This document shows positions 9,285-35,732 of a stretch of 64,000 nucleotides of DNA, piece after piece. The notes beneath the pieces were generated by a model that ran no database searches, had not been told where the DNA came from, and worked only from the letters and a program-made list of their open reading frames with translations. A program made the position numbers and the translations under genes. The stretch is from Escherichia phage KKE7M: the sequence record PQ356295.1; one strand, given 5' to 3'. Every line of letters starts with the position of its first letter. The stretch's first letter is position 1.

Positions 9285-10089
9285 AGTCATATTCATAACT
9301 GGCGCAGGACTATCTGTGGATAGCGGTATCCCAGCTTTTAGAACAGATACTTCTTCAGGGGAGGCGTTATGGTCTTCTTATGATCTTTCTGAGGTCTGTG
9401 ACATTTTCAACTTCCGTGATGGTTATCAGCAAGAACAAGGTGTTCTTGATGCTATGGGTGGTTTAGATGCGGAAGGATATAACCTCTACCGTAAAACTCA
9501 CGACTTTTACAATAAACGTCGCGTGGAATTAGCGAAAGTTGACCCGAATCCAGCACATCTTCAGATTGGAGAATGGTTCAAAAAATATGGCCCAGAACGA
9601 ATTCTTAACATTACTACTAACGTGGATGACCTCCTTGAACGAGCAGGAGTAAATAGGGAAGAAGTGCTACATGTGCACGGTTTTCTTCCTGAAATTACTT
9701 TTCAAAGAAAAGCTGGACAACCTACAATTGTAAAAGATGTTGGTTATCAAGCCATAGATGTAGATGACTACCATTATGTAAAACCTAATGTAATTTTCTT
9801 TGGAGAAGCTGCTCCACTTTACACAGATATGTATCATATTCTTGATACACTAACGGCTCAAGATATGGTTGTAGTAGTAGGATGTTCAAACCAAGTTATC
9901 AATTTTAATTGGGAATTATTCCCTGCACTTAATATGGGTACAAAAATGATCGTTGTTAACCCAGGAATTAATTACGAAGAAACTCTTCTTTACGAAGATA
10001 GAGGAGTCTTTGTTTATCGAGAAAAGGCCGCAGATGCTTTTAGCAATCCTGCTTTCATAAAAATGATAGAAGATCATTTGACTAAATAA
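9274..10089 (+). CDS. Sir2-family NAD-binding protein
   Basis: FITGAGLSVDSGIPAFR Rossmann motif (GAGxSxxSGIPxFR) and downstream HVHG catalytic His; AAGGAGGAG RBS. Confidence 0.8.
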   Translation: MPRRVIFITGAGLSVDSGIPAFRTDTSSGEALWSSYDLSEVCDIFNFRDGYQQEQGVLDAMGGLDAEGYNLYRKTHDFYNKRRVELAKVDPNPAHLQIGEWFKKYGPERILNITTNVDDLLERAGVNREEVLHVHGFLPEITFQRKAGQPTIVKDVGYQAIDVDDYHYVKPNVIFFGEAAPLYTDMYHILDTLTAQDMVVVVGCSNQVINFNWELFPALNMGTKMIVVNPGINYEETLLYEDRGVFVYREKAADAFSNPAFIKMIEDHLTK

Positions 10090-22020: not shown

Positions 22021-22386
22021 CTATTCAATGCAAGCATTATTTGCATCTTCGATTCTGTCTTTCACCCACTGCAATCTCTTTGGGTTGGTATGGCAAGAAT
22101 GTGTCTTACCTTCATCTTCATAACACAGAAGATCATAATTAAAGGGTAGGAAGGAGGATAGCCCAGCACACGTGAATTGCAGTTTCATCTCTTCCAGTGT
22201 TTTACTACGAACCATCTTGAAATATTCTATATCTTCTTCCGTAGGTTTTTTCTTTGACATAGTGGTTGCCAGGTAATCCATAAGGCAATTACACAAACCA
22301 ACATTCTCACGATGCATTGAGGAATGATCTTCCATCCATGCTTTGTAAAATTCTAACAGCAGAGGACTGCTAAGAGGAACACACAT
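22021..22386 (-). CDS. hypothetical protein (about 121 aa), paralog family A
   Basis: Start trimmed to ATG with AAAGGAGTC RBS; LLLEFY ... GLCNCL ... LPFN ... LQWVKDRI motifs. Confidence 0.55.
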   Translation of the reverse strand: MCVPLSSPLLLEFYKAWMEDHSSMHRENVGLCNCLMDYLATTMSKKKPTEEDIEYFKMVRSKTLEEMKLQFTCAGLSSFLPFNYDLLCYEDEGKTHSCHTNPKRLQWVKDRIEDANNACIE

Positions 22387-22747
22387 ATCAGACTCCTTTA
22401 TAAATTTACGTTTCATGCTACACATCATACAGCGTCTTTTCATCTATTACAAGAACAGCAACCTAGAAACATCATTAATAGAGGAATTAGTATAGGATTT
22501 CCCTATCAATTATTCTATATATACCTAATATTTTTAACACACCCCTTTGTACATAATATAGACAAATAAATATCTATGCCACAAAAATTTTCCGGTATAC
22601 CCGATTTATTTCGACACACCCCCTTTTCATAAGCGTAAAGCCAATAATATCAATAACTTGCCGCAAAATACTGCTCGCTTGCGAGAGGTGCTTAACGCGA
22701 TTTTTAGCGCCCCCGATTTCTGCCGACCGTCCCCCTCAAATATCAAT

Positions 22748-22776
22748 GAGAATTATTATCATTTGCATTATCATTC
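22748..22776. promoter_or_regulatory. Fur-box-like AT-rich palindrome
   Basis: GAGAATTATTATCATTTGCATTATCATTC resembles GATAATGATAATCATTATC. Confidence 0.3.
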
Positions 22777-22942
22777 AATGACTTATAAGACTTTTGATTA
22801 TTTTCTGAGCAAGAAAGGCACTACTCACAACAAAACAGATAAATTATAAGTAAATCAATGACTTGGCAAGTCTAAACATCTATATACACCTTGCCAAATG
22901 AAATGATCCTGCGTGAAATAGTGCTACCCGTGGAAGATAGCT

Positions 22943-22963
22943 GATAATGATTATCATTTGCAT
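22943..22963. promoter_or_regulatory. Fur-box-like AT-rich palindrome
   Basis: GATAATGATTATCATTTGCAT. Confidence 0.3.
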
Positions 22964-23272
22964 ATTTTCTATACTATAAAACTACCTAAAAATCAAGATA
23001 ATTCTGATTTATTGCGCTTTTAAGAGAATAGGCTCAACAAATAGGCTATAACTATGCTCAACAAATGATAGGTTATATGGGGCAATAGTATGAAAAACCA
23101 TCTATTCAGATATAAATAATTTTGCGCAATAATGGTGATATTTTTCTTGACAAGAAAGATTTCTTTGTGTTCACATAGCGTCCCCTGGAAGGTGGCGCAT
23201 TATGATCATCAATGTCATTGTTCACGATGTTTATTATTGAATAGCTTATTATATGTAGCTTATATTATAGCC

Positions 23273-23456
23273 AATGTTCCAAACATTAGCTAATAATAAC
23301 GCACCGCAACAATGTAAGGGATACAATATACCATGTATATTGTTGCGCTTGCAATTGTTGCAAGCTACATAAGCACAAATAATAACTATCGGTGATGGTT
23401 ATTATGTGGGGTGTGTAGTTGCGTTATTATTAGCCGCCTATGTGTCCGGCATAGGC
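23273..23456. other. nested inverted-repeat (multi-hairpin) structure in gene-free region
   Basis: 15-bp perfect inverted repeat GCTAATAATAACGCA / TGCGTTATTATTAGC encloses three internal hairpins; a fourth GCCTATG / CATAGGC hairpin follows. Confidence 0.5.
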
Positions 23457-23499
23457 TGCTAATGATACGCTTGCTAATTATATTTCTTGTTATAATTAT

Positions 23500-23826
23500 T
23501 GTATGAAATGATTACGGTATGAAATGATTATTTAGGTAATAGATAGTAAGGTAAAGATTAGATCATAAATAGATAGGATATTAATTATTTAGTAATGTTA
23601 CTAACAATTTAATAGTTACTTTGTGCAACAATTCGATAGATTATAGTTATAGTTTTAAAGGTTAGATAGATTATATTTAGCTTGGTAATGATTTATATTA
23701 GTTATTGTTGTTTAATATAAGGTTATCAATGAGATAGTAACAGTAAGTTATAAATAAAGGTGAAATAATTAGCTTTAATTTAGTTAGATAACTTATTATT
23801 TTATAGGTTAGATGGTCATAAGTTAA
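23500..23826. repeat. AT-rich iteron-like short repeats
   Basis: Dense reiteration of TAGATAG / GGTTAGAT / GATTATA words in about 330 bp without ORFs. Confidence 0.35.
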
Positions 23827-23899
23827 GAATGATTATCATTATTGCATTATGCAGTTTATTGCATAAATAATCAGCTATAAATGAGAATGATTATTATTT
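23827..23899. promoter_or_regulatory. pair of Fur-box-like palindromes
   Basis: GAATGATTATCATTATTGCATTATGC and GAGAATGATTATTATTT. Confidence 0.3.
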
Positions 23900-24104
23900 A
23901 AGAGGAAAGACAAGAAAAAGGCTGTTTTTGCCAGATAGTTACATGGAGAAATTAAAAATAAGCGGTCTAAAACACGTTGTAAGCGCCTTATGATCTTCAT
24001 GGTATGGTTGTTCATCTGCTCCTTGATTAGCTCGATACCGCGATCTATTCACTTTTTTCGGTGAACGTTTTTGATAGGTAAAAGCTATCATCTTTATTTA
24101 GGTA

Positions 24105-24130
24105 AAAAGAAAGGGCGCTTTGTGCGCCCT
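24105..24130 (-). terminator. rho-independent terminator (minus strand)
   Basis: GGGCGC-ACAAA-GCGCCC hairpin followed by TTTCTTTTT on minus strand after gene stop. Confidence 0.6.
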
Positions 24131-24145
24131 GGTGTGAAATGTTAT

Positions 24146-24529
24146 TTACTGATAAGCTGGATCGTTTGTTATATCAATCCAATGAGCTAAATTAATTTTA
24201 TTTTTTGCTTTCATTTTCTCGATCAAACGTTCGGCTAATGTCTCGGAACGAATATAAACATGCTCGCTAAAATCTTGCCCCGTTTCCTCGTCGATCATCT
24301 CGCGATATTCAATTTTCCCGATAAACGCATGATTCAGCGCATAAGTTTTACCCGTGTACCAGTTGTGCAAATGAATCTCACATTTATAATCATCGCTATA
24401 ACCTTCGGTTGTTCTAACTTCAACCAGATCGCCTTTAAACACTGATAAGCACCACATAGGATCACGATCTACAGCGCCGTTAAAGTCTTTACCGTTTACA
24501 GTAGCCGCCAGGTTGATGATATTGCTCAT
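24146..24529 (-). CDS. hypothetical protein (about 127 aa)
   Basis: Start trimmed to ATG with CGAGGAAT RBS downstream of a sigma70-like promoter. Confidence 0.6.
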   Translation of the reverse strand: MSNIINLAATVNGKDFNGAVDRDPMWCLSVFKGDLVEVRTTEGYSDDYKCEIHLHNWYTGKTYALNHAFIGKIEYREMIDEETGQDFSEHVYIRSETLAERLIEKMKAKNKINLAHWIDITNDPAYQ

Positions 24530-24575
24530 GGTGATTCCTCGTTTACCGTTTAAAATGATTTGCCCTACGTGATAA

Positions 24576-24604
24576 ATAATAATGTAAGCGCGATCCGGTG
24601 TCAA
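24576..24604 (-). promoter_or_regulatory. sigma70-like promoter (TTGACA-17-TATTAT), minus strand
   Basis: Consensus -35 and good -10 about 45 nt upstream of start codon. Confidence 0.5.
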
Positions 24605-34918: not shown

Positions 34919-34921
34919 TCT

Positions 34922-34950
34922 TGACAAGCCCAGGGATCGGGCTTATACTG
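34922..34950 (+). promoter_or_regulatory. sigma70-like promoter (TTGACA-17-TATACT) driving GC-rich non-coding transcript
   Basis: Consensus -35/-10 with no credible ORF downstream for more than 700 nt. Confidence 0.45.
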
Positions 34951-35180
34951 TTTTACATACAGAAGAGGAAGCGCCACCCCCACGGCGTAAAGGCGGGGCT
35001 AACATACCAGGGGGGCACTGGTTGGAAGGTTGATCGCCGGTAGCTCGTCTAAAATAAATTTGTAAAGAAATGTAAAGATAAAAATAATCGCTTGCTTTTG
35101 TTGTTGGTTATGCTATTCTTATTGTATGGCGAGGGGACACGGGAGCGCGAGACAAACACCACCCCTGCGCGTTATTCTCT

Positions 35181-35292
35181 AAATGAGAAAAATTCTCATT
35201 TGCTAACGATTCTCATTCTCTTACTGAGAATGATTATCACTTACATAATTAAATGATAATGATTCTCATTTACAAATGAGAATGATTATCAT
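35181..35292. promoter_or_regulatory. cluster of Fur-box-like palindromes
   Basis: AAATGAGAAAAATTCTCATTT, GAGAATGATTATCAC and AAATGATAATGATTCTCATTTACAAATGAGAATGATTATCAT. Confidence 0.35.
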
Positions 35293-35313
35293 ACGCACAC
35301 CTATAAAAACACG

Positions 35314-35520
35314 AAATTGAACTTTTCATTTTTGATTTTTCTACGGAAAAAGGCAAAAAAACTTTAAATAAACTGGGGAATTTTTAAAAAATTGAAGTTT
35401 TCATTTTCAAAATCTGGATAGAAATACATACAAAAACTTTAAATAATTTTGACCAAACTTGAACTTTTCATTTTCTAAATTTGTACCCAAAAATCTGTAA
35501 AAACTTTAAATAATTTTGTA
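35314..35520. repeat. three tandem direct repeats of about 67 bp
   Basis: Units start at about 35314, 35387 and 35455; each is AAAtTGAAcTTTTCATTTT ... AAAAACTTTAAATAA. Confidence 0.6.
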
Positions 35521-35732
35521 CTTTTTATAAAAATGATTTTACTGTTCTGTTATAAGTAGTAGTTAAGAGATAGTATGTCTTTTAAAGATCAGATACCATA
35601 GTCCAACAAACAAATTAAATACTTTATTAACAGGGTATAGAATACTACTTACTCTGGATATATTATTCAGAGGGTGAATTTCCGTACATGAAACCCACAC
35701 CCCTTTTTATAAAAATAAAAATTTTCAAAATA

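Follow-up and report, generated by a model that had tools for sequence, protein, structure and literature searches.

Predicted host Fur operators and a structured element at the genome terminus of the phi92-like Escherichia phage KKE7M

Escherichia phage KKE7M (sequence record PQ356295.1) is a phi92-like E. coli myovirus of 146 kb (Stephanstirmvirinae, Justusliebigvirus), and the stretch analyzed here, called the window, comprises 64,000 nucleotides of its genome. In this study, we analyzed an AT-rich gap between genes (32% GC) at 22444–24145 of the window (gap 1). As placed by homology, this gap is the concatemer junction where the genome ends meet, and it carries palindromes that are well supported computationally as operators with the specificity of the host iron regulator Fur. 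With a probability of roughly 0.55, we propose that these predicted operators would tie transcription of the phage control regions to host iron status.

RESULTS

Fur-type palindromes in the gap

Three forms of the Fur consensus were used, namely the 19-bp inverted repeat GATAATGATAATCATTATC, the enterobacterial 9-1-9 form AATGATAATNATTATCATT (PMC3528687), and the 7-1-7 form TGATAATNATTATCA. An earlier sequence-only reading of the window had described four palindromes resembling the Fur box in the gap, and all four were confirmed, at 22745, 22940, 23822, and 23880, with one to four mismatches to the 9-1-9 form. The sites in the window are as follows.

22745–22769: Fur box A, AATGAGAATTATTATCATT; one mismatch to AATGATAATNATTATCATT, an overlapping dyad 6 bp on, and the same position in all lineages
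22940–22964: Fur box B; two mismatches to AATGATAATNATTATCATT, with a perfect 7-1-7 dyad, TGATAATGATTATCA, at 22942–22956
23822–23843: Fur box C, AAGAATGATTATCATTATT; four mismatches to AATGATAATNATTATCATT and three to the classical 19-mer
23880–23898: Fur box D; two mismatches to AATGATAATNATTATCATT
35182–35293: cluster of four Fur boxes (35182, 35223, 35252, and 35275) in a second gene-poor gap at ~34.2–35.7 kb (gap 2)

On its minus strand, box B matches the classical Fur box at 17 of 19 positions, and the phage sites show zero to three mismatches to the 19-bp inverted-repeat consensus. Additionally, overlapping dyads offset by 6 bp are found at 22745/22751 and 22940/22946, as well as at 961/967 of phiWec179 and 9612/9618 of T5; the second dyad of each pair in the window (22751 and 22946) is weak, with four mismatches. 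A spacing of 3 or 6 bp is characteristic of Fur site clusters (Chen et al., PMC2189734).

The classical 19-mer was matched four times at no more than three mismatches, compared with 0.04 expected, and the 13-bp core eight times at no more than one mismatch, compared with 0.36 expected. AT-rich background had been named beforehand as the yardstick for such sites, and their number lies above it: when each AT-rich gap was shuffled alone with its dinucleotides preserved, none of 1000 shuffles attained the observed box counts. For a genome-wide scan, the 64-kb window was joined to the remaining 85 kb taken from UAB_1 (~149 kb), and Fur-type sites in this sequence are confined to the gap at 22444–24145 and the second gap at 35.18–35.30 kb. 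A pattern scan of IMG/VR returned at least 120 loci, without taxonomy, and carries no weight in the conclusions.

Correspondence of the palindromes to host Fur operators

As a reciprocal test, a weight matrix built from 20 unique palindromes of the phi92 group, and from these alone, was used to scan 49 kb of E. coli K-12 (590000–639000). The top four non-overlapping matches fall at fepB/entC (23.0 and 13.6 bits), fepD/entS (14.6 bits), and fepA/fes (13.2 bits), and the 99.9th percentile of the scores in this stretch is 0.1. These three loci are Fur-repressed bidirectional promoters and make up 726 bp, or 1.5%, of the scanned sequence. Fur contacts the conserved guanine through Arg57, thymines through Tyr56, and the narrow AT-rich minor groove through Lys15, and one 19-bp box is occupied by two Fur dimers (PMC4506495). 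The guanines of TGA...TCA and the AT-rich core are retained at every phage site.

The positions of the boxes are conserved as well. Boxes A, B, and D lie at the same relative places in Phapecoctavirus, Shigella phage SF1-1, and Klebsiella phage KP13-26, in which ~33% of the gap is alignable. Similarly, the first box of gap 2 occupies the same alignment column in KKE7M and in five other phages of two subfamilies, namely ESCO13 and members of four Vequintavirinae genera (Klebsiella phage KPP-1, Pectobacterium phage POP15, E. coli phage 4MG, and Erwinia phage pEp_SNUABM_01). The box of 4MG matches the consensus at 18 of 18 positions, in flanks that have drifted to ~70% identity.

Furthermore, T5-like siphoviruses, which are unrelated to the phi92 group, carry the same palindromes. 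In Gostya9, they lie in a gene-free part of ~2 kb in the terminal-repeat region, beside DnaA boxes (868–1600 of the examined stretch). In T5 (AY587007, 9473–9637), the Fur-type dyads (9473, 9577, and 9612/9618) coincide with the copies of DR-C and with palindromes E, G/H, and I of the annotation, and the site at 9577 has one mismatch and the same TTTGCAT tail as the sites of the phi92 group. These T5 dyads are located directly left of the 7.9% nick, at the calculated shear point of first-step transfer at ~9618 (Davison). The comparative analysis of this region by Davison (10.1101/866236) discusses DnaA and never mentions Fur, and no paper in the searchable literature ties Fur to phi92-type phages, to T5, or to the termini of virulent phages; the sole match concerns sitABCD cargo in lambdoid prophages.

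Three unrelated phage groups keep the motif at the consensus of the host, which favors a host protein. Collectively, the palindromes are well supported computationally as operators with the specificity of host Fur, because they exceed the shuffles in number, because the matrix derived from the phage retrieves genuine E. coli operators, and because their positions are conserved across genera and subfamilies. Of the options left by the sequence-only reading, host Fur is thus the one with good computational support, and sites for a phage regulator have become less likely, given the same motif at the host consensus in T5-like phages and Vequintavirinae. As far as the searchable literature shows, the predicted Fur-operator identity of the palindromes is new, as are their conservation over Stephanstirmvirinae, Vequintavirinae, and T5-like phages and the structured element at 23289–23456 described below.

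Position of the gap at the genome terminus

Stephanstirmvirinae genomes terminate in direct terminal repeats (DTRs), as described in a 2025 paper (PMC12695924). The corresponding features of KKE7M, which had gone unrecognized in the sequence-only reading along with the structured element, are as follows.

22693–23032: DTR of ~340 bp, collapsed to one copy in the assembly; placed by homology to UAB_1, BME3, and phi1_175008
22689–22699: DTR boundary motif TGCT^TAACGCG, cut at 22693; invariant across genera in seven taxa
23027–23038: second DTR boundary motif AGGCT^CAACAAA, cut at 23032; GGCT^CAACA is invariant in seven taxa
~23053–23066: third GCT^YAAC copy, TGCT^CAACAAAT, at 23056; the PD06 and PHB05 records start or end there

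The annotated left and right DTRs of Salmonella phage UAB_1, which measure 343 bp and are identical to each other, map to 22693–23032 at 95% identity. The DTR of BME3 measures 342 bp by PhageTerm (PMC12210895), and its record begins at the position equivalent to 22694; the record of Klebsiella phage phi1_175008 (~75% identity) ends at this same nucleotide. In this comparison by homology, three records share one end nucleotide. The two DTR boundaries have GCT^YAAC in common, which is probably the terminase cleavage site, and the third copy suggests either alternative cleavage or a record-opening convention copied from phi92. The DTR itself is already annotated in relatives and is thus not new. 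Boxes A and B are located inside it, 52 bp and ~74 bp from the respective boundaries, so that both virion ends carry these two boxes.

The second gap

Gap 2 lies 12 kb from the terminus as measured at its Fur cluster, and its main feature other than this cluster is the following promoter.

34921–34949 (+): strong sigma-70 promoter TTGACA-17-TATACT, followed by a conserved segment to 35080

The module at 34921–35300 on the plus strand is shared by Stephanstirmvirinae and four Vequintavirinae genera. It consists, in order, of the sigma-70 promoter, a conserved segment of ~110 nt (…GCGCCACCCCACGGCGTAAAGGCGGGGCTAACATACCAGG…GATCGCCGGTAGCTCG), the invariant TTTGTAAAGAnnTGTAAAG, a second promoter-like pair, a hairpin with compensating CGCG/CCGG arms, and the Fur box at a fixed position. 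The segment after the promoter is 72–85% conserved in a broad subset of 260 matching phage records from many genera. Comparison of the module with Rfam gave chance-level matches only, and the module probably encodes one or two undescribed phage non-coding RNAs (ncRNAs). Downstream, at 35300–35540, three copies of TTGAA(C/G)TTTTCATTTT alternate with three copies of AAAAACTTTAAATAA at a period of ~60–70 bp. The former resembles a −35 element with its spacer, and KPP-1 has TTGACT-17-GATACT at the corresponding place; these repeats may form an array of plus-strand promoters.

A structured element with compensatory base changes

Between the DTR and the AT-rich tract of gap 1 lies an element with a conserved secondary structure.

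23289–23456 (+): structured element of ~170 nt; an outer stem, P2–P4 inside it and P5 after it, with covariation

The outer stem P1 comprises 15 bp, in which 23289–23303 pairs with 23420–23434, and encloses the hairpins P2–P4; hairpin P5 occupies 23436–23456, and GGGGTGTGTAGTTG forms a conserved single-stranded loop. In an alignment of 14 sequences from three or four lineages, RNAalifold gave 47 pairs, of which 13 show double compensatory changes and none is broken. All 658 alignment cells pair, compared with 92% in shuffles (0 of 500 as high), and the covariation is 0.232, compared with 0.086 in shuffles. When the pairing partners were shifted by one to three columns, the paired fraction fell to 26–51%. 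Folded as a single sequence, the element reaches −85 kcal/mol (z = −8.3). Moreover, the paired cells include 38 G.U and no A.C, which identifies the plus strand, antisense to the flanking genes, as the folded strand. Rfam 15 gave no match at gathering thresholds, with chance-level matches only at E ≤ 5. Based on these observations, the element is a candidate new RNA family, predicted to act as an RNA or as a signal in single-stranded DNA.

The loop contains the motif GGGGTGTG at 23408–23415 (+), which is the reverse complement of a C-rich motif that the sequence-only reading had placed near 22538, 22612, and 35692. These copies of CACACCCC were found, at 22538, 22615, and 35696, together with the inverted copy at 23408. 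Their enrichment is weak when taken alone, as four copies compare with 0.69 expected and 1 of 100 shuffles attains four, although the position of one copy is conserved. In the sense of local transcription, each of the four reads GGGGUGUG, and the motif is confined to the two gaps, being absent from the remaining 85 kb. Variants of the loop and the motifs partly track one another among lineages (GGGGTGG and CCACCCC in KP13-26). We considered base-pairing of the loop GGGGTGTG with the CACACCCC motifs and rejected it, as the co-variation is partial and the geometry awkward, the motifs being in the same sense as local transcription. The GGGGUGUG copies may instead be a shared protein-binding motif of RNA or DNA. 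As a separate observation, TGTAAG(C/G)G in the P2 loop region (23313–23331) is similar to the TGTAAAG…TGTAAAG that is invariant in the gap-2 module (35060–35080).

The AT-rich tract and the question of an origin

The tract that the sequence-only reading had described as AT-rich and iteron-bearing is real as a compositional feature.

23480–23830 (+): AT-rich tract of ~350 bp, 21% GC, with 59 G and 15 C on the plus strand and a local flip of the GC skew

It lies directly 3′ of the structured element, and its position, AT-richness, and bias of G over C are conserved, whereas its sequence is not. The words of the TAGATAG/GGTTAGAT type do not exceed a first-order Markov prediction (the top 6-mer occurs four times, compared with a simulated mean of 5.1). 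Tandem Repeats Finder returned short repeats of two to three copies at the 5′ edge of the tract only (the best a 16-mer in 2.4 copies) and no array across it. We took iterons to be at least three regularly spaced direct repeats of ~17–22 bp, and the tract holds no such series. Neither gap contains a DnaA box (TTWTNCACA). Thus, while the gap, the palindromes, the tract, and the C-rich motifs of the earlier description remain, the reiterated words dissolve in the word and repeat tests, and an origin with iterons is unsupported as originally put.

A different kind of origin deserves consideration. The core function of gaps 1 and 2 could be a transcription-primed replication origin of the type of the T7 primary origin, T4 oriF/oriG, or ColE1, in which host RNA polymerase would fire from promoters into an unwinding tract that is AT-rich and G-skewed. 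The structured element would then provide the primer, a regulatory RNA, or, as DNA, a strand-specific signal for single-strand initiation, and the Fur boxes would be accessory. We consider this possible, although on balance doubtful. The conserved placement and composition of the tract, with its excess of G on the non-template strand, and its abutment on the 3′ side of the plus-strand element fit such an origin, and gap 2 repeats the same logic with a sigma-70 promoter, a conserved transcript, Fur boxes, and AT-rich repeats. In addition, rV5-type phages possess a T7-like Pol A and a gp4-type primase-helicase, rely throughout on sigma-70 promoters, and lack a mapped origin (PMC3606486). The promoter, transcript, and AT-tract layout of both gaps, combined with this T7-like replisome, makes transcription priming a serious reading. 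However, iterons, DnaA boxes, and an adjacent initiator gene are absent from the gap, in which no open reading frame (ORF) is conserved; a convincingly conserved promoter is missing upstream of the structured element in gap 1, whereas gap 2 has a clear one; and the cumulative GC skew merely follows gene orientation. Such an origin overlaps with gating by Fur and does not exclude it, and an AT-rich origin primed by transcription is plausible and compatible with Fur operators.

Promoters, leader, and terminator of gap 1

The remaining features of gap 1 that bear on transcription are as follows.

22444–22692 (−): unique leader from the DTR to the gp001-like gene, with a conserved block at 22501–22545 and C-rich motifs at 22538–22545 and 22615–22622
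22869–22897 (−): best positionally conserved sigma-70-type promoter, TTGGCA-17-TAGACT, present in six of seven taxa as a consensus match only
23859–23898 (+): promoter-like pair (T/C)TGCAT-N18-GA(G/T)A(A/T)T, of which box D covers −10 to ~+8
24003–24077: conserved non-coding block (…TTGATTAGCTCGATACCGCGATCTATTCA…) without a conserved fold; the longer frame on the minus strand is interrupted by a stop in Ro121c4
24112–24130 (−): intrinsic terminator of the transcription unit of the gp248 homolog, a hairpin at the end of that unit

A weight-matrix promoter scan over seven taxa gave a single well-conserved candidate, the putative promoter at 22869–22897. It lies inside the DTR between boxes A and B, is directed at gp001, and has a −10 element ending at 22869. 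An inverted repeat, TTGGCAAG-N20-CTTGCCAA (22864–22899), encloses it and occurs also in Klebsiella phage KP13-26, but not in Phapecoctavirus. In the leader, the C-rich motifs equal GGGGTGTG when read in the sense of the early genes.

For the pair at box D, the spacing of the −35 element, N18, and the −10 element is kept in Justusliebigvirus, Phapecoctavirus, and a Klebsiella phage, and box D and the terminator are separated by a distance that is constant within ~2 nt in all lineages. The 230 nt between them contain blocks of conserved sequence. A conserved fold of a putative plus-strand transcript at 23897–24135 is unsupported (−18.8 kcal/mol, two compensations, and several broken pairs). With respect to promoter overlap, box D overlaps a promoter-like pair, a promoter lies between boxes A and B, and the boxes of gap 2 are preceded by promoters.

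Flanking genes and coding capacity

Gap 1 separates two minus-strand genes, the phi92 gp248 homolog (24146–24604) and a gp001-like gene (22021–22443, ATG at 22443), beyond which lie homologs of phi92 gp002–gp006; the phi92 gene numbering therefore begins inside the gap. Phage VivaForever shares 97.5% identity with the segment 22300–24300, and at least 80% of this segment is covered in each of 46 records. Manually curated annotations leave the gap blank, and "hypothetical proteins" of 30–45 aa are tiled there by automated pipelines only.

To assess coding capacity, six distant relatives were compared with all stop-to-stop frames of at least 25 aa. Matches to the same blocks of conserved nucleotides recur in several frames and on both strands, which is a signature of non-coding conservation. 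The small ORFs of the gap were therefore rejected as genes, apart from one of 46 aa that is lineage-specific, and with this exception the description of ~1.7 kb without a credible ORF is borne out.

23875–24015 (−): possible micro-ORF of 46 aa, preceded by a strong Shine-Dalgarno sequence (AGGAG-N4-ATG); its 3′ end overlaps Fur box D

This ORF is intact in Justusliebigvirus and Ro121c4 and is broken elsewhere by the lack of a start codon (phiWec179/188), a stop (SF1-1), or truncation (Klebsiella phages). The apparent conservation at its ends is that of conserved blocks of DNA, and the C-terminal NDNH is the translation of box D. A run of ARAGORN found no tRNA or tmRNA. Several records labeled "Campylobacter phage" (MG0656xx) are 95% identical to KKE7M across the gap, and "Pseudomonas phage PsgM04F" has a gap of the Phapecoctavirus type; the host labels of these records look doubtful.

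DISCUSSION

A proposed role for Fur at phage control regions

Based on the arrangement described above, host Fe2+-Fur dimers would bind the near-consensus boxes once the phage DNA enters the cell. At box D, Fur would occlude the −10 element of the plus-strand promoter, while boxes A and B would act as roadblocks or brackets around the early promoter in the DTR. Similarly, the gap-2 cluster would place a Fur roadblock between the sigma-70 promoters and the AT-rich repeat tract. Fur occupancy would thereby couple transcription in non-coding control or origin-like regions to the iron status of the host. The genome encodes a class Ia NrdA/NrdB ribonucleotide reductase and a glutaredoxin, and a rationale for sensing iron lies in the dependence of the phage on iron through its own class Ia enzyme.

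Several points weigh against this proposal. In gap 1, generic sigma-70 and terminator scans remain at the background level, with 16 sigma-70-like matches compared with 12.5 in shuffles. Among the boxes, D alone sits on a promoter-like element, which is weak by consensus, and the placement of boxes A and B, at ~−90 and ~+100 relative to the best conserved promoter, departs from the geometry of classical repression. The termini were placed from relatives and not from reads of KKE7M. In most phage sites, one of the half-sites has G in place of T (TGAGAAT) where Tyr56 makes contact in one crystal complex (PMC4506495), and matches to the consensus can fail to bind Fur (Chen et al., PMC2189734). Moreover, it is not obvious that a phage would benefit from having its functions repressed in iron-replete cells.

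A broader version of the proposal would unite the three phage groups. Fur would serve as a conserved cofactor at the DNA ends and origin-like regions of at least the phi92-, rV5-, and T5-like groups among the large virulent phages of enterobacteria, the palindromes at the stop point of T5 would be Fur operators, and the ~170-nt element would be a new phage RNA or single-stranded DNA signal. As a joint claim, this is speculative and rather unlikely to hold in every part. It is equally tentative that Fur in this capacity would act in the entry of DNA, in early transcription, or in the initiation of replication, as an iron-gated roadblock or an architectural protein. The structured element and the leaders of the early mRNAs share the GGGGUGUG motif.

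Alternative explanations of the palindromes

The palindromes might instead act as a decoy. Some 10–11 high-affinity sites per genome, multiplied by replication, would titrate host Fur and de-repress the iron-uptake regulon of the host, thus feeding the iron-dependent ribonucleotide reductase of the phage. Multicopy Fur boxes are able to de-repress chromosomal Fur targets, which is the basis of the Fur titration assay (cited in PMC2189734). The phage sites are nearer to the consensus than the native ent/fep operators, cluster in non-coding DNA without convincing promoter overlap, and are doubled in the case of boxes A and B through the terminal repeat, and the presence of NrdAB agrees with the presumed benefit. 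However, a decoy requires no fixed positions, whereas the boxes, across subfamilies, hold exact positions relative to the DTR boundaries, a −35-like hexamer, a terminator 225 nt off, and a conserved transcript module. Since host DNA is degraded early in T5 infection, de-repression of host genes would be pointless in that phage. Titration would also have to contend with thousands of Fur molecules per cell, and we consider it an unlikely purpose of the sites.

It is distinctly unlikely that a phage-encoded protein, such as a small terminase, a packaging factor, or a repressor, recognizes the palindromes and that their likeness to Fur boxes arose by coincidence or mimicry. The biology of DNA ends would accommodate such a protein, as boxes A and B are found 50–75 bp inside the DTR boundaries and those of T5 are situated next to the stop of first-step transfer, within the terminal repeat; moreover, the Fur consensus includes neither the recurrent variant TGAGAAT/TGCGAAT nor the tail TTTGCAT. 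In contrast, the motif is common to T5-like siphoviruses and two myovirus subfamilies, for which no shared DNA-binding protein was identified, and it stays at the host consensus while its flanks diverge. Furthermore, the matrix derived from the phage picks out E. coli Fur operators, the gap-2 cluster is remote from the terminus, and the TTTGCAT tail is missing in Phapecoctavirus. Finally, that chance produced AT-rich palindromes in junk DNA between genes has a negligible probability: the low GC content of the region and its background level of sigma-70-like matches would suit it, but the local shuffles, the conservation across genera and subfamilies, and the positive K-12 matrix test refute it.

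If host Fur does read these sites, the control regions of lytic phages from two myovirus subfamilies and the T5-like siphoviruses would directly sense or exploit the iron status of the host. The Fur hypothesis offers a testable account of the unexplained "non-coding box" in rV5/phi92-type genomes, of their undefined origin, and of the injection-stop palindromes of T5. It may also matter for phage therapy, for which phi92-like phages are candidates, as infection sites are iron-limited. Independently of Fur, the structured element adds a candidate new RNA family.

Comparison with known systems

The structured element resembles single-strand initiation (ssi) signals, complementary-strand origins of the G4 type, and structured phage ncRNAs in its strand specificity, its several hairpins within ~170 nt, and its location next to an AT-rich tract, and differs from them in lacking sequence or Rfam similarity. 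The gap as a whole resembles the concatemer junction and primary origin of T7-like phages with short DTRs, in that an exact DTR of ~340 bp with specific cut sites has non-coding flanks; as in the T7 primary origin, promoters are followed by an AT-rich region, and rV5 relatives have a T7-like replisome. Unlike T7, KKE7M is a myovirus of 146 kb that uses host RNA polymerase, its GCT^YAAC cut motif and repeat content differ, and its origin role is putative.

The injection-stop region of T5, repeat region 3 (palindromes E, G, H, and I, DR-C, and DnaA boxes), is likewise a large conserved untranslated region in a terminal repeat, for which binding of a host factor, DnaA, has been proposed (Davison, 10.1101/866236). 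It shares the same palindromes with KKE7M, including the TTTGCAT tail. In contrast, T5 has a coding repeat of 10 kb and a two-step injection, the KKE7M gaps contain no DnaA boxes, and the phages are unrelated.

Other sites for host regulators in phages include those of Fur-regulated stx1, DtxR-regulated tox, and the PhoB/NtcA boxes of cyanophages. A Fur box is also found upstream of sitABCD in lambdoid prophages (PMC6969025). KKE7M resembles these cases in being a phage genome with predicted operators for a host sensor of metals or nutrients. However, the known cases control a cargo or auxiliary gene, whereas the KKE7M boxes have no evident regulated protein gene, lie at termini and origin-like modules, and are conserved over whole subfamilies of virulent phages.

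In comparison with the Fur operators of Enterobacterales (fepA-fes, fepB-entC, iucA, and ryhB), the phage boxes lie in the control regions and DTR of a virulent phage and not upstream of iron-uptake genes. They are mostly away from recognizable promoters, are nearer to the consensus than many native operators, and often contain a TGAGAAT half-site. The classical aerobactin operator has this same half-site variant. The phage boxes and the native operators agree in the 19-bp repeat of the 9-1-9/7-1-7 type, the dyads offset by 6 bp, the AT core, and the TGA/TCA guanines. Moreover, the phage matrix recovers the native operators, and box D lies over a putative −10 element, as in classical repression.

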